In this document: positions 9,178 to 60,906 of the stretch, one piece after another
Layout of the letters: each line of letters begins with the position of its first letter
How positions within the stretch are numbered: position 1 is the first letter of the stretch
Source of the DNA: Candidatus Pacearchaeota archaeon
GTDB lineage: Archaea; Nanobdellota; Nanobdellia; Pacearchaeales; GW2011-AR1
Direction of reading: 5' to 3'
NCBI GenBank assembly: GCA_016181885.1
Contig: JACOYJ010000026.1
Span: 1,185 to 65,184 of the forward strand
Length of the DNA: 64,000 nt
Program-made: the position numbers and the translations under genes
The notes under the pieces: model-generated
What the model saw: only the letters and a program-made list of their open reading frames with translations
The model's database searches: none
What the model was told of the DNA's origin: nothing

Positions 9178-9746
9178 AGATAATAAAAAAATATCGTGAG
9201 CGCAGAATAAAAAGAATAAGCAAGCAAATACAAGATTTGAATACAGCTATTGCTAATTTAGAGAAGGAGTATGATGGCAGATCATATTGCGAAGGGTTGT
9301 ATAATCAAGGATTTTCTAAAGGCGAAAACTCTGGAGATTATTTATTTTTACAAATGTCTGCGATAAATAAAAAGAATAAGTTAGAAGATGAATTAAAAGA
9401 ATTGGATTCCTCGTTAGGAACGGATGCAGCTCAACTGACAGATGATGAAATTAAAATAAATGACAGATATTATTTACAAAAAACTAAGGAGTTAGAATGG
9501 GATCTTAGAATTGGCTGTGCTGGGTATAGATTTTCTGGTTGTGGATATAACCTTCCAATTTTAGAACGAACTGGTGTCTTTAAAAGAAAATCCATTGAGT
9601 ATCTATCTCATAAGGCTGAGTACATTATGTTTTCTGGATGGCTTTTCTGTGGGTTAGTGGATTTAATTTGCGATGAAGCAAGACAACTTGCAAGAAGAAG
9701 AACAGATAGAAATTTAGAAAAATTAAAAAAAGGTGATAAAAAATGA
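9174..9746 (+). CDS. hypothetical coiled-coil/Cys-containing protein (NAD operon member)
   Basis: ATGA overlap at both ends; no family recognised. Confidence 0.4.
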   Translation: MKIIKKYRERRIKRISKQIQDLNTAIANLEKEYDGRSYCEGLYNQGFSKGENSGDYLFLQMSAINKKNKLEDELKELDSSLGTDAAQLTDDEIKINDRYYLQKTKELEWDLRIGCAGYRFSGCGYNLPILERTGVFKRKSIEYLSHKAEYIMFSGWLFCGLVDLICDEARQLARRRTDRNLEKLKKGDKK

Positions 9747-10366
9747 AAACAATATTCTGGAATGTAGACACTCAATACGATTTCATGAGAGCATATGGAA
9801 AACTTTATGTTCAGGGAGCTGAAAGCATCGAAGGAAATCTCGAGATATTGACAAAATTAGCTGAAAAAGAAAATATCCAAGTTGTAAACACTGCTGACTG
9901 GCACACAGAAAAAACTGAAGAGATTTCAAATAATCCAGATTTTATTAAAACTTTTCCAAGACACTGTATGAACGGAACTCCTGGCGCAGAATATGTTCCT
10001 GTAACAATTCCCCAAAAACCTTATAAAATTAGATGGTGGCAGAAAAGCTTTGATGAAAAAGAAGTTGCGAATTCAAGAAATATAATTCTTTACAAAGATA
10101 AATTTGATGTTTTCACAGGAACTCCGCATGCTGATTCTGTTTTAAGGATAATAAAACCTGAAAGAGCAATAGTTTATGGCGTCGCGACAAATGTATGTGT
10201 TGATTGCGCTGTTACTGGGCTGCTTGAAAGAAAAGTAGAGGTTTACGTTCCGTTAGATGCTATTAAGGAACTTCCAAACCTGCCGCTTCATGAAGTTTTA
10301 GACAGATGGAAGGGCATGGGAGCGAAACTAATTAAAACCTCTGAAGTTGAAAAGTATATAGCATGA
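9743..10366 (+). CDS. pncA: isochorismatase-family cysteine hydrolase, likely nicotinamidase
   Basis: Isochorismatase-like fold signatures (FWNVDTQYDF; VYGVATNVCVDCAV catalytic Cys). Lies between NAPRTase and NadE. Confidence 0.6.
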   Translation: MKTIFWNVDTQYDFMRAYGKLYVQGAESIEGNLEILTKLAEKENIQVVNTADWHTEKTEEISNNPDFIKTFPRHCMNGTPGAEYVPVTIPQKPYKIRWWQKSFDEKEVANSRNIILYKDKFDVFTGTPHADSVLRIIKPERAIVYGVATNVCVDCAVTGLLERKVEVYVPLDAIKELPNLPLHEVLDRWKGMGAKLIKTSEVEKYIA

Positions 10367-12003
10367 AAATAGCAATAGCCCAGATAACAACTTACCCTGG
10401 AGCAATAAAAGAAAACACAAAAAAAATAATCTCCTTTATAGACGAGGCTAGAAAGAAAAAAGCAGAGCTTGTAATTTTTCCAGAGCTGGCTATTCCCGGA
10501 TATCTATCTATGGATTTAATCCTCAACGAAAAATTTGTTGAGACAAATTTAGAAGCGCTTGATGAGATAGTTAAAGCCAGCAAGAGAATTTCAGTTATTG
10601 TTGGGTTTATTGATAAAGACAAAGAAAAAATCAGGCCTGATGGATTAAAAGTTAGGTATAATTCAGCTGCAATAATTACTGATGGAAAACTTGTTGGAGT
10701 TCAGGATAAAACTCTCCTCCCGGATTATGATGTATTTTACGAGAATAGATACTTTGCTCCAGCAAGAAAAAGAGAAGTATTCAAAATTAATGGAATGAAA
10801 ATAGGAATTGAAATCTGCGAAGATATGTGGGACGAAAACTATAACATAAATGTTTCAGACGACCTTTGCTCTAACGGGGCTGATTTGCTTATAGATATTT
10901 CAGCCTCCCCGTTTTATTTAGGCAAGAGGTTTGTTAGAGAGTTGATAATTAAAAGAATTATAAAAAGGCATAAGATGCCGTTTGTATATGCGAATCTTGT
11001 CGGAGTTCAGGACGGATATGAGGGCGAGCTCGTTTTCGACGGGCAAAGCATGGTTTTTGATAACAATGGGAATTTAATAGCTTTAGGAAAAGAATTTGAA
11101 GAGGAGCTTTTGATGCTAGATTTAAATAACAAAAGAATGGGGGATTTGGGGTATGATGAAGTTAAAGAGCTTAACGATGCTTTAGTTTTTGGAATAAAAG
11201 AATATTTTGCAAGAAATAATTTCAAAAAAGCTTTTATTGGCTTAAGCGGAGGAATAGACAGCGCGGTTGTTGCTGCTTTGGCCGTTCAAGCCTTAGGCAA
11301 GGAAAATGTCATTGGGGTTTTTATGCCTTCTAGATTTTCAAGCAAAGAAAGCAGAAATGATGCAAATAAATTGGCTGATAATTTAGGAATCGGCTTCAAA
11401 ATTATTTCAATAGAGGAAAGCTTCAAAATTATTGAAGAAACGCTTAAAGATTCCTTCTCAGGAAAAAATAAAGATGTTACTGAAGAAAATGTGCAGGCGA
11501 GAATTCGCGGTCTGATTTTAATGGCATTTGCAAATAAGTTCGATGGCCTTGTTATAAGCACTGGAAATAAAACAGAAATGGCGCTTGGCTATTGCACTTT
11601 ATACGGAGATATGTGCGGCGGACTTTCCGCAATCAGCGATGTCAGCAAATTAGATGTTTATAAGATTGCGAATTATATTAATAAGAAAAATATGGGAGAA
11701 GTAATTCCGCGATCAAGCATTGAAAAAGCTCCCTCTGCCGAATTGGCTGAAAATCAAACTGATGAAAAGGGGCTGGGAGCAAGCTACGATATTCTTTCCC
11801 CTTTAGTTGATGATATTATTGAAAATCAAATGAGTCTTGAAGAACTTTCTAAGAAATATCCGGAAAATTTAGCAATTAGAATAATCAAAAAGATAAATGC
11901 CAGCGAGTACAAAAGGAGGCAGGCTGCTCCCGGAATAAAAGTTACCAAGAAGGCTTTTGGCGTCGGCAGGAGAATTCCGATAAGCCATAAATTTGAAGGA
12001 TGA
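10363..12003 (+). CDS. nadE: glutamine-dependent NAD+ synthetase (nitrilase domain + NadE domain)
   Basis: N-terminal CN-hydrolase domain (catalytic Cys in EICEDMW) and a C-terminal PP-loop (SGGIDS). Confidence 0.85.
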   Translation: MKIAIAQITTYPGAIKENTKKIISFIDEARKKKAELVIFPELAIPGYLSMDLILNEKFVETNLEALDEIVKASKRISVIVGFIDKDKEKIRPDGLKVRYNSAAIITDGKLVGVQDKTLLPDYDVFYENRYFAPARKREVFKINGMKIGIEICEDMWDENYNINVSDDLCSNGADLLIDISASPFYLGKRFVRELIIKRIIKRHKMPFVYANLVGVQDGYEGELVFDGQSMVFDNNGNLIALGKEFEEELLMLDLNNKRMGDLGYDEVKELNDALVFGIKEYFARNNFKKAFIGLSGGIDSAVVAALAVQALGKENVIGVFMPSRFSSKESRNDANKLADNLGIGFKIISIEESFKIIEETLKDSFSGKNKDVTEENVQARIRGLILMAFANKFDGLVISTGNKTEMALGYCTLYGDMCGGLSAISDVSKLDVYKIANYINKKNMGEVIPRSSIEKAPSAELAENQTDEKGLGASYDILSPLVDDIIENQMSLEELSKKYPENLAIRIIKKINASEYKRRQAAPGIKVTKKAFGVGRRIPISHKFEG

Positions 12004-13112
12004 AACTAGTGGATGGTGGGAAATACACTCTAAATGAAATTGAAGCCTCTTTGCTTGATAACCATAAATATCCTGCTCATCAAGTTGAAAGAATAATGCC
12101 TGTTCTTGAAGAGGTTGACAGATTAAGGGCAGAAAAGAATGCAATTATCCTTGCTCATTATTATCAAGAGCCGCCAATTCAGCTTATTGCGGATGTCCGC
12201 GGAGATTCGCTGAAGCTGGCTTACGCTGCAAGAGAAATAAAAGACAAAAGGCTTGTTCTAAGCTCTACTGTTTTATTTATGGCAGAGATGGTTAAGCTTT
12301 TAAGTGAGGATAAAAAAGTAATCATTCCCGCTTTAGATGCCGGCTGCTCAATTGCTGAGGGAATTAATGGCGCAACAGTTAAAAGAATTAGGGAAAATTT
12401 TCCGGAAAGCGCAATTGTTTCATATATTAATGTTTACGCAGATACAAAAGCAGAAGTTGACAGCGTCTGCACTTCTGCCAATGCGCAAGAGATTATAAAA
12501 AACATTAAAGGAAATCCAGTAATTTTGCTTCCTGATTACTTCTTTGCTAAGAATATATTTTATGAATTAACTAAAAATAAAAATAATGACAGAACATATT
12601 TGGCTTATAAGGGAGTTGATAACGGAAATATAATCCTCGAAGATGTCTTAAATAATAGAGCCACATCACTTTCAGGAAAAGGAATAAATCTTCCAAGCCT
12701 GCCTAAAGGAACCTGCATTGTTCACGAGCAATTTACGCCGGAAGAAATTGCTTATTTTAGAAGAAGCCAGAAAATTGATGTTGTAATGGCGCATCCAGAG
12801 GTAAATCCAGAAGTTGCGCGCGTTTCAGATTTTATTGGAGGAACTGAAGCCATGATAAGATATGCCAAAACAAATCCTAGTAAGAAATATTTAGTTATTA
12901 GCGAATGTGATTTAACTGCTCCATTGAAAGAAGCATGTCCAGAAACAGAATTTAACACGCCATGCACGTTCTGTCCGTATATGAAGCGAAATACCTTAGA
13001 GAGTTTCTTGCGTTCTATAAAGGAAGAGGTTTTTGAAGTTAATATTGATAAAAAAATAGCTGGTAAAGCTAGAATGTCTCTTGAAAGGATGTTTGAGTTA
13101 AGTGGAAAATGA
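12000..13112 (+). CDS. nadA: quinolinate synthase A
   Basis: ILAHYYQ, HPE and C...CPYM cysteine motifs typical of NadA; about 370 aa. Confidence 0.75.
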   Translation: MKLVDGGKYTLNEIEASLLDNHKYPAHQVERIMPVLEEVDRLRAEKNAIILAHYYQEPPIQLIADVRGDSLKLAYAAREIKDKRLVLSSTVLFMAEMVKLLSEDKKVIIPALDAGCSIAEGINGATVKRIRENFPESAIVSYINVYADTKAEVDSVCTSANAQEIIKNIKGNPVILLPDYFFAKNIFYELTKNKNNDRTYLAYKGVDNGNIILEDVLNNRATSLSGKGINLPSLPKGTCIVHEQFTPEEIAYFRRSQKIDVVMAHPEVNPEVARVSDFIGGTEAMIRYAKTNPSKKYLVISECDLTAPLKEACPETEFNTPCTFCPYMKRNTLESFLRSIKEEVFEVNIDKKIAGKARMSLERMFELSGK

Positions 13113-13681
13113 AAATAGGGATTTTTGGAGGCAGTTTTAATCCGATTCAAAATACGCATGCAAGAATAATTAAAGAAGTGTTAAAAAATAAATTGGTCAA
13201 TGAGGTTTGGATTGTTCCTTCCGGAAATCACCCTTTTGATAAAAAAATGGAAAGCGTTGAACATAGATTAAAAATGATTAATCTTGCAATAAAAGGGATA
13301 AAAAATGTCAAGGTTTGCGATATCGAAATAAATTCAAACGGAAAGAGCTATACTTATGACACGATTAAAAAGTTAAGGGAAAAATATCCCCACGAATTCT
13401 TATTAATTATAGGCTCAGATATTCTTAGGGATATAGAAAGATGGCATAAATATAAAGAATTGGTTAGAGAAGTTAAATTTATTATATTCCTGAGAGATGG
13501 CTATTCAATAAAATTGTCCGGGAATTTTAAAGATTCATATGTGATAGAGGAAAATCCAAACAATATTTCCTCATCAACCATAAGGAGACTAGCAAGTGAT
13601 GGGCATTCAATAAAAAATCTTGTTCCTAAGGAAGTTGAAGAATATATTAAACAAAAGGAATTATATAAAAATGAAAAATAA
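13109..13681 (+). CDS. nadD: nicotinate/nicotinamide-nucleotide adenylyltransferase, bacterial NadD type
   Basis: GIFGGSFNPIQNTHARI (NadD HxGH-type motif) and the downstream SxT motif region. Confidence 0.7.
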   Translation: MKIGIFGGSFNPIQNTHARIIKEVLKNKLVNEVWIVPSGNHPFDKKMESVEHRLKMINLAIKGIKNVKVCDIEINSNGKSYTYDTIKKLREKYPHEFLLIIGSDILRDIERWHKYKELVREVKFIIFLRDGYSIKLSGNFKDSYVIEENPNNISSSTIRRLASDGHSIKNLVPKEVEEYIKQKELYKNEK

Positions 13682-14078
13682 TTTAGGAAATACCGTCGAT
13701 GTAATAATTGAAGATAGAGAAGGCATTGTTTTAGTTAAGAGAAAAAATCCGCCTTTTCGCGGCTGCTGGGCTTTGCCGGGCGGATTCTTGGAGGTTGGAG
13801 AGGAAAGCCTTGAACAATGTGGAGCAAGAGAAACATTTGAGGAGACTGGATATATTGTCAAGGAAAGAAATCTGAAATTACTAGGAGTTTACTCTCACCC
13901 AAATCGCGATCCTCGGGGGCATATTATAGCCCATGTTTACATTGCTAAGGAATTTTATGGAAAATTAAAAGCCGGCGACGATGCCAAAGAAGTCGGAAAG
14001 TTTCCAAGGCATAATCTTCCAGGGCTTGCTTTTGACCATGCGAAAATATTAAAAGATTATTTTGCTGAATATGGATAA
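13671..14078 (+). CDS. NUDIX hydrolase
   Basis: Nudix box GGFLEVGEESLEQCGARETFEETGY. Start chosen at MKNNLG, overlapping the nadD stop. Confidence 0.7.
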   Translation: MKNNLGNTVDVIIEDREGIVLVKRKNPPFRGCWALPGGFLEVGEESLEQCGARETFEETGYIVKERNLKLLGVYSHPNRDPRGHIIAHVYIAKEFYGKLKAGDDAKEVGKFPRHNLPGLAFDHAKILKDYFAEYG

Positions 14079-14511
14079 AATGAAACAATTGAGAGTTGGA
14101 GTTGTTGGATATTGCCCTCCTTCGAGATTTGACGAAGGAGAAGCGAGAATAAGGATTAGAGAGGCTTATGATAAAATAATGGCAGATTTTCCAGATATAG
14201 AAATAATAATTGTCTCGGGATTAACTAACGCTGGTGTTCTTAAATTAGCATATGAAGAGGCTAAAATAAGAAATTGGAAAACTGCCGGAGTTGCCTGTAA
14301 AAAGGCATATAATCTTAGAGATAATTGGTTTCCAGTCGATGAATCGCCAATTGTTATTGGAGAAAACTGGGGGGACGAGAGTCCCGCTTTTTTAAGAAAT
14401 ATAGAAGCTCTTGTAAGGGTTGGCGGAGGCAAACAATCTTTTCGGGAAGCTGAAGAAATGAAAAATAGGAAAGCTTATGTAATTGAATATGATTTGCCTA
14501 TTTTAGGGTAA
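14062..14511 (+). CDS. YpsA/SLOG-like (DUF1273-like) Rossmann-fold protein
   Basis: VVGY..., SGLTNAGV, and GGGKQS..E......KAYVIEYD follow the YpsA/SLOG pattern (GGQLGxD ... GGSKYTVDYAVKKGKTVYVI). The start could instead be 14071 or 14080. Confidence 0.45.
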   Translation: MLNMDKMKQLRVGVVGYCPPSRFDEGEARIRIREAYDKIMADFPDIEIIIVSGLTNAGVLKLAYEEAKIRNWKTAGVACKKAYNLRDNWFPVDESPIVIGENWGDESPAFLRNIEALVRVGGGKQSFREAEEMKNRKAYVIEYDLPILG

Positions 14512-14517
14512 TATAAA

Positions 14518-15291
14518 ATGTTCAAAAAAATTCTTGTTATTTGCAGAGGCAATATTCTTAGAGAGGGCTCAAAAACCATTTATTGCATAAAATCATTTCT
14601 TCATGGAAAGAGATTCAGAGTTGTCGGCGCAGGAAGCCTTAATAAAAATATTTTTTCTGGAGTGGATTTGGTGATAACCCTCGGGGGAGATGGGACTTTT
14701 TTGAGGGCTGCTAGTTTTGTGAAAAATCAGTTAATCTTAGGAATTAACTCAAATCCAAAGGCAAGCGAAGGCGCCTTAACCAGCTTTAATGCAGATGCAG
14801 TTTATTTAGTTAAAGAAATTTTAGGCGGAAAATTCAAGATATTAATCAGACAAAGAATAAGTGTCTGGAAAAATGGAAAATTATTGGATAAACCAGCATT
14901 GAACGAAGCATATATCGGATCAAGAAGCCAGTTCCATACATCAAGATACAAGATTTACTTTAATGGCAAATGCGAGGAGCATAGAAGCTCCGGCGTTTTA
15001 ATTTCTACTGGAACAGGTTCAACAGCATGGTATTCTTCTGCAGGCGGAAGGCCTTTCCATTATGCTGATAAAAAGCTTAAGTTTATTGTCAGGGAGCCAT
15101 TTTTCGGAAAGTTATTTAGGCCAATAATCTTGCATGGTGAAATTAACAGCGGACAGAAAATAAAAATAGAGTCAACAGGAAAGCTCGGCTCTATAGTCTT
15201 GGATTCAAATGCTTCTTTTAGTTTTGAAACCGGAGATGTAGTTGAAGTCGGGATTTCTGATGAACCATTAAGAGTAATTACAAATAACTAG
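14518..15291 (+). CDS. nadK: NAD kinase
   Basis: GGDGTFL motif and NE/D region. Confidence 0.75.
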   Translation: MFKKILVICRGNILREGSKTIYCIKSFLHGKRFRVVGAGSLNKNIFSGVDLVITLGGDGTFLRAASFVKNQLILGINSNPKASEGALTSFNADAVYLVKEILGGKFKILIRQRISVWKNGKLLDKPALNEAYIGSRSQFHTSRYKIYFNGKCEEHRSSGVLISTGTGSTAWYSSAGGRPFHYADKKLKFIVREPFFGKLFRPIILHGEINSGQKIKIESTGKLGSIVLDSNASFSFETGDVVEVGISDEPLRVITNN

Positions 15292-16787
15292 GAAATCTTG
15301 GACTTCTCTCCAACAAGAATCATATTAGTATCCGGATAATCTATGGCAATTAACCCATTTCCTTTCTCTTTACATAATTTAACCTTTCCTCCATACATCT
15401 TCTCGACAATATACTTGCTTTTAAACGAATGCGAACCAGCGACAATATCAAAGCCGGCCTTGTTTAGCTCTTCCCTCCATTCTTCAAAGCTCCAAAATCC
15501 AAATTCTTCGTGCATTTCGCTCTGCCAGTTATCCGCATAATTCATTTTGCTGATAAATTCGTAAGCATCGCGCATAGAAATCTCGATAAATCTTTTCCCA
15601 TCAAGATATTTTTCCCTGAATTTTATCTTTCTTGGAATAAAATCATTAACAAATTTGTGAAATTTTGCATATGTTGAAAGGGTTTTAATTTCTCCTTTTT
15701 GCTTCCCATCGTTTTCAGTTAATTCCATTAATATCTTTTCTTTTCCATTTTTGGGTCCGACAACATCCCTTATAATTATTCTCCCACCAGAAGCAAGCTG
15801 ATTATAAGTATTTTTCAAAACTCTTGTTAAGGCGGACTTATTTATATAGGAATAGATTTCATGCAGAACAGAAGAATAAATGAAAGTATTTATTGTATTT
15901 TCTTTAAAGTTCTGGTCAAGAACATTTCTTCTATAAAAATAGACAAATGGATTGGGGTATTCTTGCAATTTGCAATACTCATAAAATCTTCTTGTGGCTT
16001 CTATTCCAATTACATCAGACTCTTCAAAACATTTTGACAAGTGCCAAACCAAAGCTCCTGTCCCGCAGCCGGCATCAACTATTTTTCCCTGAACTACAAA
16101 TGGCTTTATGTCCCTGAACTTGAATTCAATGTTTTGGTCCATGCTTTTCGCGTAAGAATTGTAATCTCTCGTGTCTGTCAAATCAGCATCCTCATTTAGC
16201 AATGAGTCGCTAAATAATTCAATTATCCTATCCCCTAGGCTGTATTCAGCATAAACTTCTTGGGTTGCTCTGGATGCGTATTCTTTCCATTTACTGTTTT
16301 TTCTCCAATTATTCCCGGCTTTAACCAACAAATCAATAACTTCATATGGCCTAAATGAAGAATATTTATCTTTTTTTACATTGATTAATTCAACAGGCAG
16401 ATTTTTGAATCCTAACTTTTTAAATAAACTTATGACTGAAGGGGTAGAACAAGCTAGAACAGCATTCGTTGAATTGAGCTTTTCTTCGCTTAAATACTCT
16501 ATTTGATGGATAATATATTCTGCAAATTTATTGGTTTGTTTAACATCCGGGATAGGATAAATCTTAACTTCGCAAGGCAAGTCCCTTGAAAATTTTTCTA
16601 TCGCCAATACCCTAAGATAAAGCGGAACAGGATTCCTCCTGGTATTGGCATGATCCGCCGACGTTATTGCAAAAATAATCCTATCAACTTTTTCTCCATT
16701 AAGCCCGGCATCAATAACTTTTTGCAAATAATTGTGTTGATATTCAGTGAGCATATGATGCCTGCCCGGGAATAATATTGCAACCAT
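15288..16787 (-). CDS. fusion protein: divergent NadM-like NMN adenylyltransferase domain + class I SAM-dependent methyltransferase domain
   Basis: N-terminal region resembles archaeal NMNAT (…GRHHMLTEYQH ~ GRFQPFHKGH; AITSADHANTRRNPVP ~ GIGSAQKSHTLENPF; IYPIPDV ~ YYPIPIKDI), but the first His of HxGH is lost. A later segment carries MTase motif I (VVQGKIVDAGCGTGALV). Confidence 0.55.
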   Translation of the reverse strand: MVAILFPGRHHMLTEYQHNYLQKVIDAGLNGEKVDRIIFAITSADHANTRRNPVPLYLRVLAIEKFSRDLPCEVKIYPIPDVKQTNKFAEYIIHQIEYLSEEKLNSTNAVLACSTPSVISLFKKLGFKNLPVELINVKKDKYSSFRPYEVIDLLVKAGNNWRKNSKWKEYASRATQEVYAEYSLGDRIIELFSDSLLNEDADLTDTRDYNSYAKSMDQNIEFKFRDIKPFVVQGKIVDAGCGTGALVWHLSKCFEESDVIGIEATRRFYEYCKLQEYPNPFVYFYRRNVLDQNFKENTINTFIYSSVLHEIYSYINKSALTRVLKNTYNQLASGGRIIIRDVVGPKNGKEKILMELTENDGKQKGEIKTLSTYAKFHKFVNDFIPRKIKFREKYLDGKRFIEISMRDAYEFISKMNYADNWQSEMHEEFGFWSFEEWREELNKAGFDIVAGSHSFKSKYIVEKMYGGKVKLCKEKGNGLIAIDYPDTNMILVGEKSKIS

Positions 16788-16840
16788 AATTACTATAAAA
16801 TCTAAATCTTTAAATAACTTATTGTCTTACGAACATTAAG

Positions 16841-17497
16841 ATGAAATACACCAAGTTAAGCGTTACTGTCGATGTAGCTATTTTCACAATACAAGATAAT
16901 GACTTGAAAGTCCTGCTTATAAAAAGAAATTTAGAACCATTTAGGGGATTCTGGGCTTTGCCAGGCGGATTTGTCAGAGATAAAGAAAATCTCGATGAAG
17001 CGGCAAAAAGAGAGCTTGAAGAAGAAACGGGAGTTAAGAATGTTTATCTTGAGCAATTATACAGTTTTGGAGAAGTTGGAAGAGATCCAAGAGGAAAAAT
17101 AATTACCATAGCATATATGGCTTTAGTTAATTATGACAGGGTAAATGTTAAAGCTACTACGGACGCTTCAGACGCTCAATGGTTCCCAGTGTCTAAATTG
17201 CCTAAACTTGCATTTGACCACGATAAAATTCTAAGTTATGCCTTGAAGAGACTAAGATGGAAATTTGAATATACTGCTGTTGCCTTCTCATTACTGCCGA
17301 GAAAATTTGCAATAAGTGAAATACAAAGAATTTATGAGATTGTTTTTAATAAGGGTTTTGACAAGAGAAACTTTGCCAAAAAGATACTATCGCTGAACAT
17401 CATCCGGGAAGAGGGTGTAAAGAGGGATGTTTCGCATAGACCCCCAATGCTTTATTCCCTGAAAAAGGACATAGGGCAGATAATTGAGATTTTGTAG
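16841..17497 (+). CDS. nrtR: NrtR-like regulator: Nudix domain + C-terminal winged-helix domain
   Basis: Intact Nudix box (GGFVRDKENLDEAAKRELEEETGV). C-terminal ~90 aa resembles the NrtR wHTH (…RKFAISEIQRIYEIVFNKGFDKRNFAKKIL…). Confidence 0.55.
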   Translation: MKYTKLSVTVDVAIFTIQDNDLKVLLIKRNLEPFRGFWALPGGFVRDKENLDEAAKRELEEETGVKNVYLEQLYSFGEVGRDPRGKIITIAYMALVNYDRVNVKATTDASDAQWFPVSKLPKLAFDHDKILSYALKRLRWKFEYTAVAFSLLPRKFAISEIQRIYEIVFNKGFDKRNFAKKILSLNIIREEGVKRDVSHRPPMLYSLKKDIGQIIEIL

Positions 17498-18654: not shown

Positions 18655-18830
18655 TGTAAAGTAAACCCTCAATCTTGGCATAAAAAATTACTCACTCCTA
18701 TCGTCGTGTATTTTATTATTAACATTAATGGCAAATCTGCGAATGAAATGAGCAGGTAATTATATTTATTCTTTGCAGATTATTTAAGGAATTAAACTGC
18801 AGAATGTTAAGTTATGAACTGGCTTAACAA
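18655..18830 (+). repeat. interspersed noncoding repeat family 1, copy A (core ~176 bp)
   Basis: More than 85% identity to copies at 44051-44226 and 60665-60906 on this strand, and to reverse-complement copies at 38773-38947 and 29263-29642. Internal hairpins (aatctgcgaat/attctttgcagatt; gttaagt/acttaac). Ends about 41 nt before the sufB ATG. Confidence 0.8.
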
Positions 18831-20705: not shown

Positions 20706-21662
20706 ATGGGCAATAATTCAGGCAACGAAATGACAAAGCTCGAGAGAGTAATTTTGGCTGAGCCGAGGGGATTTTGCGCTGGCGTCGATGTTGCAATAGA
20801 CGCTGTTGTGAGGTTGGCTGAAGAGCATCCTGGAGAAAAGATATATGTTAGGCATGAAATTGTCCATAACATTCACGCCGTCAATGATTTAAAAGAAAAG
20901 CACAGAGCGGTTTTTGTTGAAAATCTTTCGGAAATTCCAGAGGGATCAAGAGTTGTTTTTAGCGCTCATGGGACCTCCCCAGAATTTTATGAAGAGGCAA
21001 AAAAGAGAAATCTTAAGGTCACTGATGCAACTTGCGACTTGGTTAGATTAGTTCATGCAAAAGTAAAAAAATATCATGAAAGGAGATTTGAGATAATTCT
21101 AATCGGTCACAAAGGACATCAAGAAGTCACCGGCACAATGGGTTACGCTCCAATGCATTTGGTTGAAAGCGTTGATGATGTTGGAAAGCTGCCGATAGAT
21201 AAAAATAGAAATGTTGCTTACGTGACTCAAACAACTTTATCGAAGTATGATACTAAAAGAATAGAGGAAGCTTTGAGAGATAGGTTTGTTAATTTGATTT
21301 CTACAAAAGACGACTTATGTTATGCTACAACCAACAGGCAAGGGGCAGTTATGGCAATTATTGATAAGTTTAAAGTTGGAGGTTTCTTAGTTGTTGGAGA
21401 AAATAACAGCTCAAATTCCAGAAGTTTGGTTGAGACAGCAAAACAGTTAGGAGTTAAATCGCATCTGCTCTCCACATGGAAGGATATTGACCAACAATGG
21501 TTTAATGGAATTAAAGACGTTGGACTAACATCTGGAGCCTCTGTCCCGGAATATCTTGTTGGCGAAGTTATTGAACATTTAACAAAATTTTTTGGGGCAA
21601 TAGTTCAAACCTATGTTCATAAAAATGAGGATATTAAATTTAGACCGAGAATTTTAGTTTAA
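20706..21662 (+). CDS. ispH: 4-hydroxy-3-methylbut-2-enyl diphosphate reductase (IspH/LytB family)
   Basis: PRGFCAGVD..AID, HEIVHN and three conserved Cys. The start may be at 20736 (MTKLERV). Confidence 0.8.
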   Translation: MGNNSGNEMTKLERVILAEPRGFCAGVDVAIDAVVRLAEEHPGEKIYVRHEIVHNIHAVNDLKEKHRAVFVENLSEIPEGSRVVFSAHGTSPEFYEEAKKRNLKVTDATCDLVRLVHAKVKKYHERRFEIILIGHKGHQEVTGTMGYAPMHLVESVDDVGKLPIDKNRNVAYVTQTTLSKYDTKRIEEALRDRFVNLISTKDDLCYATTNRQGAVMAIIDKFKVGGFLVVGENNSSNSRSLVETAKQLGVKSHLLSTWKDIDQQWFNGIKDVGLTSGASVPEYLVGEVIEHLTKFFGAIVQTYVHKNEDIKFRPRILV

Positions 21663-60664: not shown

Positions 60665-60906
60665 TGTAAAGTAAACCAGCAATCTTAACGTAAAAAATTA
60701 CTCACTCCTATCGTCGTGTATTTTATTATTAACATTAATGGCAAGTCTGCGAATGAAATGAACAATATATTATTAAACTAATAATTACCTTTTATCATCA
60801 ATAATTGTTTCATCTTGCAACTTTATGCTCTTCCATTAAACTCCTTGCGATAATAATGTTGAAGGAATTAAACTGCGGATATTGAATTATAAACTTGACT
60901 TAACAA
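60665..60906 (+). repeat. repeat family 1, copy E (extended form, alternative middle module)
   Basis: The 5' ~95 nt and 3' ~50 nt match the core. The middle is replaced by a module also present in copy B. Confidence 0.75.

Follow-up and report, generated by a model that had tools for sequence, protein, structure and literature searches.

A NadM-like/SAM-methyltransferase fusion encoded divergently from nrtR at the end of a DPANN archaeal NAD operon

The window, the whole 64,000-nucleotide stretch of Candidatus Pacearchaeota DNA that was analysed, encodes a confirmed two-domain protein of 499 residues in which a NadM-like domain is joined to a SAM-dependent methyltransferase. We demonstrate here the identities of both domains, the loss of a NadM motif, conservation across the fusion family, an operator for the NAD regulator NrtR, and genomic linkage to NAD genes. 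In our leading reading, to which we assign a probability of roughly 0.4, the gene specifies an NrtR-controlled methyltransferase whose NadM-derived domain would bind, and not adenylylate, a nucleotide of the NAD family, and this nucleotide would receive the methyl group; the repression, the loss of adenylyltransferase activity, the class of ligand and the equation of ligand with acceptor are the parts that we infer.

Results

The fusion protein and its NadM-like domain

The 499-residue minus-strand open reading frame had been reported in an earlier, sequence-only reading of this DNA, and its coordinates proved exact. A deposited 'methyltransferase domain-containing protein [Candidatus Pacearchaeota archaeon]' is 100% identical to it and 891 homologs were found in the database, hundreds of them full-length, which argues for a real gene and not a chance reading frame. 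The AF2 model has a pLDDT of 90.4 and a pTM of 0.79. The features of the gene are as follows.

15288–16787 (−): NadM-like/SAM-methyltransferase fusion gene, 499 aa (open reading frame and translation)
16188–16787 (−): N-terminal NadM-like (HIGH-superfamily Rossmann) domain, residues 1 to about 200 (TIGR01527, 1f9a profile match, Foldseek 1ej2)
16737–16766 (−): variant first motif GRHHMLTEYQ, residues 8–17, replacing NadM GRFQPxHxGH, both His positions being taken, by T14 and Q17
16623–16664 (−): NadM signature loop TSADHANTRRNPVP, residues 42–55, equivalent to NadM IGSAQxSHTxxNPF (HMMER alignment to MJ0541)
15753–16163 (−): class I SAM-dependent methyltransferase core, residues about 209–345 (Pfam above cutoff, Foldseek)
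16056–16079 (−): motif I VDAGCGTG, with D238, G240 and G244 invariant
15291–15752 (−): strongly conserved C-terminal extension, residues 346–499, with the motif DAYEFxSKxxYxDNWxSEMHEE

Three independent tests agree on the NadM likeness of the N-terminal domain, and in the HMM searches and the comparison of the AlphaFold model with NMNAT that the sequence-only reading had proposed, archaeal NMNATs are nearest by profile and by fold. The NCBIfam equivalog model TIGR01527 (arch_NMN_Atrans) matches residues 19–144 with an E-value of 5e-6 and 26.2 bits, well under its curated cutoff of 181.2. A PDB search with the family profile identified the M. jannaschii NMNAT MJ0541 (1f9a; E = 1.9e-7, residues 31–140), and Foldseek matched the AF2 model to the M. 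thermautotrophicum NMNAT structures 1ej2 (target TM 0.82, rmsd 3.4) and 4yp5 (target TM 0.77), with rmsd values of 3.2–3.4 for the pair. The fold is that of the HIGH-superfamily Rossmann-like nucleotidyltransferases with NMNAT closest, and not that of an unrelated Rossmann domain. No Pfam family was assigned to the domain even at E ≤ 1, and CTP_transf_like does not detect it.

The (H/T)xGH ATP-binding motif that follows strand 1 is absent, and LTxFQ is found family-wide instead. The loss of HxGH had been noted from the sequence as a replacement of the first His only; in fact both are replaced, by T14 and Q17, and H18, taken then as the surviving second His, lies at a position that varies in the family (H, Y, F, L, S or Q). 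T14 and Q17 were placed by setting the strand (residues 2–8) and helix (15–27) of the model against what we take to be the NadM topology. An alternative MAFFT alignment, which pairs TxFQ with NadM GRFQ, was rejected; the GR-anchored placement fits the strand and helix boundaries of the model. In some 80 species from different phyla the variant motif is kept as PGRH[HQ]xLTxFQ, and both motif and loop (TSANHxNTRRNP) are kept in DPANN, CPR, Bacteroidota, Planctomycetota and Myxococcota at an overall identity of just 37–41%, so the site appears to be under selection and not decaying. In the loop region, T42, S43, P53 and R59 are invariant and N52 nearly invariant (≥90%) in both clades. The second NadM signature, SGTEIRRR / ISxTxxR, is missing; the region reads KYSSFRPYEV (family consensus YS[ST]LRPYE), in which only the Ser/Thr and one Arg are retained. 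Descent of the domain from an archaeal-type NMN adenylyltransferase (NadM) is supported, the fold and the TSANHxNTRRNP loop having been kept. AMP transfer has most likely been lost, although nucleotidyl transfer might persist at another catalytic site made up of the conserved R9, H10/H11, T14 and Q17.

The methyltransferase half

The C-terminal half is a class I SAM methyltransferase with a GCGTG motif I, as first read. It scores above the cutoffs of Methyltransf_25 (33.2; cutoff 27), Methyltransf_12 (32.5; 30), Methyltransf_31 (31; 27) and Methyltransf_11 (31.1; 21.2) in Pfam. The GxGxG of motif I and the acidic residue following strand 2 are both present, the latter as the nearly invariant E263 of GIE, and D238, G240, G244, D258, G261, H309 and E310 are invariant in the core. 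The suggested comparison with small-molecule methyltransferases returned such enzymes by Foldseek at E-values of about 1e-9, among them the N-, O- and C-methyltransferases mouse NNMT (rank 45), BioC and phosphoethanolamine MTs; these model-based matches are generic and do not pinpoint the acceptor. A Pfam search gave no sequence-level match to the NNMT/PNMT family, and PDB profile matches to bacterial Hen1 RNA methyltransferases were weak and not significant (E = 0.17–0.45). A viral fold library yielded generic methyltransferase matches only, with poor TM; the PADLOC models gave a generic core match to mad2 only (31 bits, residues 234–352) and no specific match to a known anti-phage defence model; and tblastn found no phage homolog.

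The conserved extension of about 150 residues is probably a substrate lid. Core and extension form a module that also occurs alone and in the PRK06922 family; on Bacillus plasmids it is found alone or with unrelated N-termini beside cas3/Fic, all plasmid matches being to this C-terminal module and in Bacillus. Residues 209–495 align with positions 396–676 of NF005379 (PRK06922, 'class I SAM-dependent methyltransferase', 677 aa, Bacillus cereus group) at E = 3e-20, that is, with the C-terminal 280 profile positions only, and the 72 bits obtained stand against a cutoff of 602 for a full-length match. Core and extension are common to both proteins; unlike the fusion, PRK06922 has an unrelated, unannotated N-terminus of 390 residues, for which no Pfam or PDB match and no functional lead was found, and is plasmid-borne beside cas3/Fic. 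It is likewise uncharacterised.

The NAD operon, nrtR and the divergent promoter

The fusion gene and nrtR lie at the end of an NAD operon on the plus strand, where the sequence-only reading had placed them, and the fusion gene (stop codon 15288–15290) and the convergent NAD kinase gene overlap by 4 nt at their 3′ ends.

7088–15291 (+): NAD operon (Pfam and NCBIfam assignments), with candidate NrtR boxes at its head
16841–17497 (+): nrtR, Nudix-related transcriptional regulator, 218 aa (Pfam NUDIX and NrtR_WHD)
16967–17035 (+): NrtR Nudix box, residues 43–65, canonical GX5EX7REUXEEXGU, readable directly
17282–17461 (+): NrtR winged helix, residues 148–207 (NrtR_WHD)
16788–16840 (no strand): divergent promoter region, 53 bp
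16809–16816 (no strand): TATA-like box TTTAAATA, central in the spacer, about 26–28 nt from either start codon
16819–16839 (no strand): predicted NrtR operator, 21-bp palindrome TTATTGT-CTTACGA-ACATTAA with a GT-N7-AC core, flanked by the TATA box and the start codon of nrtR
7064–7084 (no strand): candidate NrtR box AAAGTGT-AAAATAT-ACACTAA ahead of the NAD operon, overlapping TATA-like TTTATAAA (7059–7066)
7086–7106 (no strand): second candidate NrtR box TTATGGT-AAAACAA-ACACTAA, which follows 22 bp downstream and overlaps the ATG that opens ORF 7088

The operon comprises, in order, two small unknown ORFs, an NAPRT-like gene, two unknown ORFs, a PncA-like gene, NadE, NadA, NadD, Nudix, a SLOG-like ORF and NAD kinase, and the assignments from NAPRT-like to NAD kinase hold. 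Its NadD deviates in its motif (QNTH) yet scores as canonical NadD (TIGR00482; 176 bits, cutoff 112), and the cell therefore does not depend on the fusion for adenylyltransferase activity. The unknown 149-aa ORF (14062–14511) was considered as the counterpart of a conserved 141-aa neighbour in Cytophagales and rejected, the two having no similarity. NrtR matches Pfam NUDIX (1e-22, 81 bits) and NrtR_WHD (7.6e-19; 68.1 bits, cutoff 27); its reading frame is exactly as first given, and the intact Nudix box and C-terminal winged helix ascribed to it are both there. With 177.8 bits it falls under the 400-bit cutoff of the NCBIfam equivalog NF050029, and it represents a divergent archaeal/CPR branch.

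The proposed search for a palindromic operator in 16788–16840 was successful: the site at 16819–16839 is the top match in the whole window (21.6 bits) to a PWM built from other loci only. In 14 orthologous loci the half-sites are conserved and the 7-nt spacer between them is variable. Orthologous intergenic spacers measure 56–68 bp with the same layout, and the TATA-like box is conserved as TATTTAAAG (fusion-sense orientation) in 14 DPANN spacers; the promoter function of TTTAAATA we presume from archaeal promoter geometry. The site agrees with the published 21-bp GT-N7-AC architecture of NrtR sites (PMC2330246), and palindromes with this core lie near NAD genes at 16819–16839, 7064–7084 and 7086–7106. 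Operators had also been sought upstream of 7088 and 7679; candidates lie immediately upstream of the former and none upstream of the latter. The two candidates have moderate individual scores (13.3, and 13.9 for the box at 7086–7106; shuffled windows give 0.6 matches ≥13 per 64 kb), and a half-site PWM finds only three matches ≥9 in the window, 7064–7084 among them. Tandem boxes occupy the equivalent position in L015, L024, L008, L004 and L017, and NrtR boxes recur at matching positions elsewhere among DPANN and CPR loci. Even where nrtR is not adjacent, in one CPR locus, the fusion gene is preceded by a perfect box, 168 bp upstream. The DPANN/CPR matrix finds no sites ahead of Bacteroidota or Planctomycetota fusion genes. 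Chitinophagaceae spacers contain a different, 16-bp palindrome, GGTTG-N6-CAACC.

Distribution and NAD linkage of the family

The fusion is encoded by at least 455 species of DPANN, CPR, Bacteroidota, Planctomycetota and Myxococcota, and a sister clade extends to Chloroflexota and Naegleria. Identity is 55–77% between archaeal and bacterial ultra-small symbionts and 37–41% to cultured soil bacteria. Of 82 loci, 62 encode NrtR near the fusion, within flanks of up to 10 kb (divergent and adjacent in 34), and 14 have NAD kinase within 600 bp; 20 of the 82, mostly from Planctomycetota, have neither NrtR nor NAD genes in the flank. In Cytophagales the fusion closes the operon nrtR – nadM/Nudix – nadV – prs – x – ADP-ribosylglycohydrolase – fusion, and the Chitinophagaceae cluster reads kptA – ARH – nadV – nadM/Nudix – nrtR <> fusion. 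Macro domains, KptA/Tpt1 and ADP-ribosylglycohydrolase are among the neighbours. Sister-clade loci lie beside NrtR and NAPRTase or near nadCAB, and one has no NAD context. The association holds through varied gene orders and orientations across archaea, several bacterial phyla and the sister clade.

Pfam, NCBIfam and PADLOC hold no curated family for the fusion, and our search of the accessible literature found no paper describing it; in the Aravind-lab NAD/ADPr survey the words methyltransferase and methylase are absent. Nor, in these databases and this literature, is the C-terminal domain a common fused partner in a described family. The family, though unnamed, is large and widespread, neither rare nor local.

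Discussion

The fusion shares with NadM (TIGR01527; 1f9a, 1ej2) the fold, the Asp of PIxD, membership of NAD clusters, and a conserved aromatic residue at the position that we take to stack on nicotinamide in NadM; the loop TSANHxNTRRNPxPxxxR is the counterpart of NadM IGSAQxSHTxxNPFTxxER. It differs in having TxxQ for the HxGH histidines, YS[ST]LRPYE for SGTEIRRR, and an added methyltransferase of 300 residues. NadM-Nudix (NMNAT/ADP-ribose pyrophosphatase, NrtR regulon) likewise pairs a NadM-type domain with a second NAD- or ADPR-related domain beside nrtR, nadV and prs, and co-occurs with the fusion in Bacteroidota operons; unlike the fusion, it keeps LHxGH and a catalytic NadM half, and its partner is a Nudix hydrolase. 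NrtR regulons in general combine a Nudix and winged-helix repressor with 21-bp GT-N7-AC palindromes, form divergons with NAD salvage genes and are autoregulated (Rodionov et al. 2008, PMC2330246). That study covers bacteria only and contains the word methyltransferase 0 times, no such target being described; here, in contrast, NrtR, operator and fusion target are found in DPANN archaea, with the box against a TATA-type promoter.

In our leading reading, the fusion gene would be a member of the ADP-ribose-responsive NrtR NAD regulon. NrtR bound to the 21-bp palindrome by the shared TATA box would repress both nrtR and the fusion gene, and would also occupy the two boxes where the NAD operon begins; NAD consumption would raise ADP-ribose and derepress all three units. 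The N-terminal domain would serve as a binding module for NAD(P), NMN/NaMN or an ADP-ribose derivative, with no AMP transfer, and the C-terminal methyltransferase would pass the SAM methyl group to the bound ligand. Counting against this, the acceptor need not be an NAD nucleotide, because the module of core and extension also occurs alone on plasmids or with unrelated N-termini. We know of no methylated pyridine nucleotide or ADP-ribose derivative in prokaryotic NAD metabolism.

The small-molecule matches, with NNMT, BioC and phosphoethanolamine MTs among them, also fit an arrangement in which the NadM-like domain is an allosteric NAD(P)/ADPR sensor and the methyltransferase modifies the free pyridine base, by N-methylation of nicotinamide or nicotinate (NNMT- or trigonelline-type) or methylation of the nicotinate carboxyl, thereby tuning precursor flux or relieving nicotinamide inhibition of NAD-consuming enzymes. 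The PncA-type (DPANN) and NadV-type (Bacteroidota) contexts have a single metabolite in common, nicotinamide, and the NAD consumers KptA and ARH lie in the same cluster. Among well-known methyltransferases NNMT alone acts on an NAD metabolite; it shares the overall fold but has neither a nucleotide-binding partner domain nor a comparable C-terminal extension, and its family gives no sequence-level match. Methylated nicotinamide or nicotinate would moreover be lost to salvage, contrary to the logic of a regulon that rebuilds NAD, and we regard this arrangement as fairly unlikely. The KptA/Tpt1 RNA 2′-phosphotransferase, ADP-ribosylglycohydrolase and Macro-domain neighbours, the Hen1 profile matches and the occurrence of the module by cas3/Fic would suit a methyltransferase acting on RNA or protein, for example on an ADP-ribosylated or NAD-capped target recognised by the NadM-like domain; yet the Hen1 matches lack significance, no RNA- or protein-binding domain is present, and the best structural matches are to small-molecule enzymes, which makes a macromolecular substrate improbable.

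It is also distinctly unlikely that the N-terminal domain is still a nucleotidyltransferase, using R9, H10/H11, T14, Q17, R50/R51 and R146 in a bifunctional enzyme that couples adenylylation with methylation, for example in making or editing a modified dinucleotide. The replacement motif is conserved as strongly as a catalytic one, two histidines directly follow the conserved GR, the loop has extra invariant arginines, and the deviant QNTH of the window's NadD is tolerated in a protein that still scores as NadD. The HIGH superfamily has, however, two signatures that bind ATP phosphates, HxGH and SGTEIRRR, and both are altered; the NMNAT equivalog score is 26 bits against 181, and there is always a gene for a canonical NadD or NadM in the vicinity. 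A merely positional NAD linkage, with a generic methyltransferase sharing a divergent promoter with nrtR, would account for the loci, mainly in Planctomycetota, that have no NrtR or NAD genes in the flank and for the sister-clade locus without NAD context; it is very improbable given the persistence of the association through differing gene orders in archaea, bacterial phyla and the sister clade, the derivation of the domain from an NAD-synthesis enzyme and the NrtR box ahead of the fusion gene.

NAD metabolism is among the best-mapped prokaryotic pathways, and we know of no methyltransferase in it; none is part of it in the papers searched. The fusion, strongly conserved as a two-domain protein, hints at a methylation step there. 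Its genomic companions are the ADP-ribose-sensing repressor NrtR, NAD salvage genes, NAD kinase and enzymes that consume NAD, and it is a concrete candidate for a missing NAD reaction or control point. That the family uses SAM to methylate a pyridine nucleotide or a derivative of ADP-ribose, a new reaction in an NrtR-controlled branch of NAD turnover, its NadM domain having gone from catalyst to substrate binder, is a tentative and somewhat unlikely proposal; if true, the branch would be a conserved one that runs from DPANN and CPR through Bacteroidota, Planctomycetota and Chloroflexota to the eukaryote Naegleria. Genetics and metabolomics are feasible in the cultured carriers Niastella, Ohtaekwangia, Chryseolinea and Terrimonas. 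With this locus the NrtR system, operator and target included, also reaches into archaea, and its box against a TATA-type promoter offers a clean case of a bacterial-type repressor on archaeal transcription machinery.

The fusion locus and its NAD operon

The fusion gene faces a divergent regulator gene, nrtR, across 53 bp and is convergent with the NAD kinase gene that ends an NAD operon, the two 3′ ends overlapping by 4 nt. The sequence-only reading of this locus proved essentially correct, in that its domains, the loss of a motif, the NrtR neighbor and the NAD operon were all confirmed.

Genes of the fusion locus and upstream NAD operon
7088-7414, plus strand: small ORF without assigned function, at operon head
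7330-7713, plus strand: small ORF without assigned function, at operon head
plus strand, continuing: NAPRT-like gene, two ORFs without assigned function, PncA-like isochorismatase, glutamine-dependent NadE, NadA
13109-13681, plus strand: NadD
plus strand: Nudix hydrolase
14062-14511, plus strand: weakly SLOG-like ORF
plus strand: NAD kinase
15288-16787, minus strand: fusion ORF, 499 codons
16841-17497, plus strand: nrtR ORF, 218 codons, divergent from the fusion ORF

The operon NadD reads GGSFNPIQNTH, with Gln at the first His of HxGH, and still scores above the TIGR00482 cutoff (176 bits versus 112); 12 DPANN orthologs carry PIHNGH, HNEH or HNAH at this site. The Gln could be a real variant, a one-base sequencing error, or the mark of a weakened enzyme. 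The 149-aa ORF that separates the Nudix gene from the NAD kinase gene has a sub-threshold SLOG match only (LSDAT_prok, E = 0.002); other DPANN loci have, in its stead, a Nuc_deoxyribosyltransferase-like (PF15891) gene tail-to-tail with the fusion.

The N-terminal domain is NadM-like but not a NadM

No Pfam model matched the N-terminal 200 residues of the fusion, even at E ≤ 1. The NCBIfam equivalog for archaeal NMN adenylyltransferase aligned with residues 19-144 (E = 5e-6) at a score well short of its own cutoff, and a profile built from 37 homologs matched M. jannaschii NMNAT (PDB 1f9a) over residues 31-140 at E = 1.9e-7. The AlphaFold2 model of the fusion (pLDDT 90.4, pTM 0.79) matched M. 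thermautotrophicum NMNAT with target TM-scores of 0.82 (1ej2) and 0.77 (4yp5), these two being the sole nucleotidyltransferases among its top 50 structural matches. In the HMMER alignment, the NadM loop IGSAQKSHTLENPFTAGER pairs with TSANHENTRRNPVPLYLR of the fusion, and PIKDIE with PIPDVK.

Both ATP signatures are altered. The first reads GRHHMLTEYQ in the fusion versus GRFQPFHKGH in NadM; when aligned through the common GR and the model's strand (2-8), loop (9-13) and helix (15-27), T14 and Q17 would occupy the two His positions of HxGH. Replacement of the first His had been recognized from the sequence and stands, but the second His that had appeared to survive, H18, is not conserved. The second signature, SGTEIRRR in NadM, becomes YS[ST]LRPYE. 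The motifs PGRH[HQ]xLTxFQ, TSANHxNTRRNP and CSTP are kept, together with those of the methyltransferase and its extension, in all sampled phyla, and we therefore regard the altered first-signature site as selected rather than decaying. The N-terminal domain alone, used as query in an exhaustive phmmer search, returned 184 cluster representatives; since nearly all of the full-length ones measure 480-560 aa and carry the domain N-terminally, it is essentially confined to the fusion. Like NadM-Nudix, the fusion couples a NadM-type domain with a second NAD-related activity. It departs from NadM, however, in three of the four features tested (HxGH, the second signature and the curated cutoff) and is not a NadM.

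The C-terminal half is a class I methyltransferase

Pfam recognized only a class I methyltransferase in the fusion (residues 236-340, four families above cutoffs). This half carries an invariant motif I (VDxGCxxG), a GIE acidic residue after strand 2 and an invariant HE after strand 4, together with a conserved C-terminal extension of 150 residues (DAxEFxSKxxYxDNWxSEMHE). Its structural neighbors, identified using Foldseek, are generic small-molecule N-, O- and C-methyltransferases, the matches including Rv2258c, phosphoethanolamine methyltransferases, NovO/CouO, BioC and Coq5. By every testable criterion, the C-terminal half is a class I SAM methyltransferase. The methyltransferase and extension also occur alone, as a 274-aa protein on a B. 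velezensis plasmid (L089 5968-6792). On a B. thuringiensis plasmid (L088 4807-6843) they form the C-terminus of a 678-aa PRK06922 protein that has cas3, cas6 and Fic genes as neighbors; the 390-residue N-terminus of this protein matched nothing in Pfam or the PDB.

The fusion family is widespread

A deposited [quoted passage not shown], encoded on a 69-kb contig, matches the window protein at 100% identity, which places the window in a DPANN archaeon. The fusion had been taken as novel because it was not recognized from known families; known folds are combined in it in a new way, but it defines a widespread, conserved, uncharacterized family rather than a local oddity. Database searches returned 891 homologs at E ≤ 1e-3, mostly full length, and relatives turned up in at least 455 species when one genome per GTDB species was scanned with a sequence pattern. 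Identity to the window protein is 55-77% for relatives in DPANN and CPR and 37-41% over the full length in Bacteroidota, Planctomycetota, Myxococcota and others. Bacteroidota carriers, cultured and uncultured, include Niastella, Chitinophaga, Terrimonas, Pseudoflavitalea, Ohtaekwangia, Chryseolinea and Sporocytophaga, and the existence of cultured carriers makes the family a good experimental target. A sister clade with the motif TSANQxNSRYNP has more than 700 members in Chloroflexota, CPR, Nanoarchaeota and the eukaryotes Naegleria lovaniensis and N. fowleri. The source records carry only generic names ("methyltransferase domain-containing", "SAM-dependent methyltransferase", "hypothetical"), and the bacterial members gave only a sub-threshold NCBIfam match, to PRK06922.

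NrtR and its predicted operators

The 218-aa nrtR product matches the Nudix domain (1e-22) and the NrtR winged helix (7.6e-19), and residues 43-65 form a perfect Nudix box, in agreement with the intact box and C-terminal winged helix initially read from the sequence. By domain content and predicted operator it is an NrtR, though its NCBIfam score falls short of the equivalog cutoff. The founding paper on NrtR is restricted to bacteria and names no methyltransferase as a target (PMC2330246). In the literature searched, archaeal NrtR was not described, and no paper joined NrtR to DPANN or CPR names or described the fusion.

The nrtR-fusion spacer measures 56-68 bp in 14 other DPANN loci, with the same layout as in the window: read in the fusion sense, CAT of the nrtR start, a 21-bp element, 2 nt, TATTTAAAG, ~20 nt and the fusion ATG. 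Within the element, the half-sites TTAkTGT and ACAmTAA are conserved and the 7-nt spacer is variable, as would be expected for the site of a dimeric DNA-binding protein. No site in the 64 kb scores higher than the predicted operator at 16819-16839 (TTATTGTCTTACGAACATTAA), which reaches 21.6 bits with a matrix derived from other loci only and including the spacer; with this matrix, one of 20 shuffles reached 22.1. A symmetrized half-site matrix gave three sites of at least 9 bits in the window, at 16819 (18.9), 7064 (13.3) and 7086 (13.9), and 0.6 sites of at least 13 per 64 kb in shuffled windows. Of the latter two candidate boxes, which lie 22 bp apart, the one at 7064 overlaps the TATA-like TTTATAAA and the one at 7086 the ATG of the NAD operon's first ORF. 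A palindromic operator had been suggested for 16788-16840 and upstream of 7088 and 7679; the matrix scan placed boxes at the first two and none upstream of 7679. The two overlapping ORFs downstream (108 and 127 aa) have no family match; 7088-7414, whose start codon falls within the second box, has Cys pairs recalling a zinc ribbon, and 7330-7713 weakly matches, by tblastn, the head of the operon in another locus, L006.

Candidate boxes also precede NAD operons in loci L004, L006, L008, L015, L017 and L024, some in tandem and spaced 22-28 bp apart (22-23 bp in L015 and L024), and occur in CPR loci L016, L027 and L029; in one CPR locus without an adjacent nrtR, a perfect box lies 168 bp upstream of the fusion. 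By the general geometry of archaeal promoters, the TATA-like TTTAAATA (16809-16816), ~26-28 nt from each of the two start codons, fits one quasi-symmetric element serving leaderless divergent transcripts. NrtR bound at 16819-16839 would cover the BRE side of the fusion gene and the initiation region of nrtR, and so repress. DPANN and CPR (L001-L029) have in common NrtR (46-71% identity), the TTAkTGT-N7-ACAmTAA box and the fusion (55-77%), which implies that regulator, putative site and target were transferred together between domains. In Chitinophagaceae, the spacers between nrtR and the fusion (L047, L051, L063, L072, L084; ~9910-9992) share a conserved 16-bp palindrome, GGTTG-TAGTAC-CAACC, which differs from the DPANN/CPR-type box and may be the local NrtR site.

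Linkage to NAD genes across lineages

Among 82 non-redundant loci with up to 10 kb of flank examined, NrtR (E < 1e-30) was found in the flank in 62, within 400 bp of the fusion in 37 and divergent-adjacent in 34; NAD kinase lay within 600 bp in 14.

Gene order around the fusion by lineage
DPANN: NAD operon convergent with fusion; fusion divergent from nrtR; Nuc_deoxyribosyltransferase-like gene or NAD kinase tail-to-tail with fusion
Cytophagales, single strand: nrtR, nadM/Nudix, nadV, prs, 141-aa ORF, (NAD kinase), ADP-ribosylglycohydrolase, fusion
Chitinophagaceae: kptA/Tpt1, ADP-ribosylglycohydrolase, nadV, nadM/Nudix, nrtR divergent from fusion
One CPR locus: nrtR divergent from fusion; NAPRTase and Macro-domain gene close by
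Sister clade: adjoining NrtR and NAPRTase (L086); 4.5 kb from nadC-nadA-nadB (L087)

That gene order varies by lineage argues for a functional rather than accidental linkage, which across phyla takes in NAD salvage genes, NAD kinase and NAD-consuming enzymes. The fusion works like a member of the NrtR regulon, and its family is tied to NAD turnover. The conserved 141-aa protein of the Cytophagales operon (L075 8600-9034, L032 9455-9901 and 16 further loci), often encoded immediately 5′ of the fusion, has an N-terminal AFDIHGT, is faintly HAD-like and had no Pfam or PADLOC match.

Proposed function

Enzymes of the HIGH superfamily rely on the HxGH histidines and the ISxTxxR motif to bind the phosphates of ATP and the transition state. 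Because these ATP-binding signatures are altered and a canonical NadD or NadM invariably accompanies the fusion in the loci compared, we infer that the N-terminal domain has lost adenylylation. As a NadM fold, it probably can still hold an NAD-type ligand, which the methyltransferase half probably modifies; we give this joint reading, binding without adenylylation and methylation of the bound ligand, a probability of roughly 0.4. The metabolites common to the PncA-type (DPANN) and NadV-type (Bacteroidota) contexts are NAD(P), ADP-ribose derivatives and nicotinamide, and the recurring NAD kinase, ADP-ribosylglycohydrolase, KptA and Macro neighbors point towards NAD(P)/ADPR-type ligands.

With nicotinamide among the shared metabolites and NNMT at rank 45 of the methyltransferase-half matches, it is possible, if unlikely, that the N-terminal domain acts as an allosteric sensor and that the methyl acceptor is a free pyridine base. 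An active non-canonical nucleotidyltransferase, making the fusion bifunctional, would accommodate the constancy of the variant motif; the altered signatures and the ever-present NadD or NadM make it a distinctly doubtful proposal. We hold in similarly low regard a macromolecule methyltransferase that recognizes an ADPR or NAD mark, for which the KptA and Macro neighbors can be cited on one side and the small-molecule enzymes matched by Foldseek on the other. Planctomycetota loci are mostly without NAD neighbors in the examined flanks and one sister-clade locus has no NAD context in its neighborhood; set beside the lineage-varying linkage elsewhere, a fusion without real connection to NAD seems very improbable. 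Binding of an NAD-type ligand by the N-terminal domain and its methylation by the C-terminal half is the reading we prefer.

Other features of the window

A near-identical intergenic repeat of ~100 bp, CTGTAAAGTAAACC...TTACTCACTCCTATCGTCGTGTATTTTATTATTAACATTAATGGCAA..., occurs at ~18655-18760, upstream of sufB (18872), and at ~60665-60770; it had no match in Rfam and could represent either a small RNA or regulatory DNA common to both sites. Adjoining sufB and nifU on this putative DPANN archaeal contig is a gene (20706-21662, plus strand) for IspH/LytB, a step of the bacterial-type MEP pathway.
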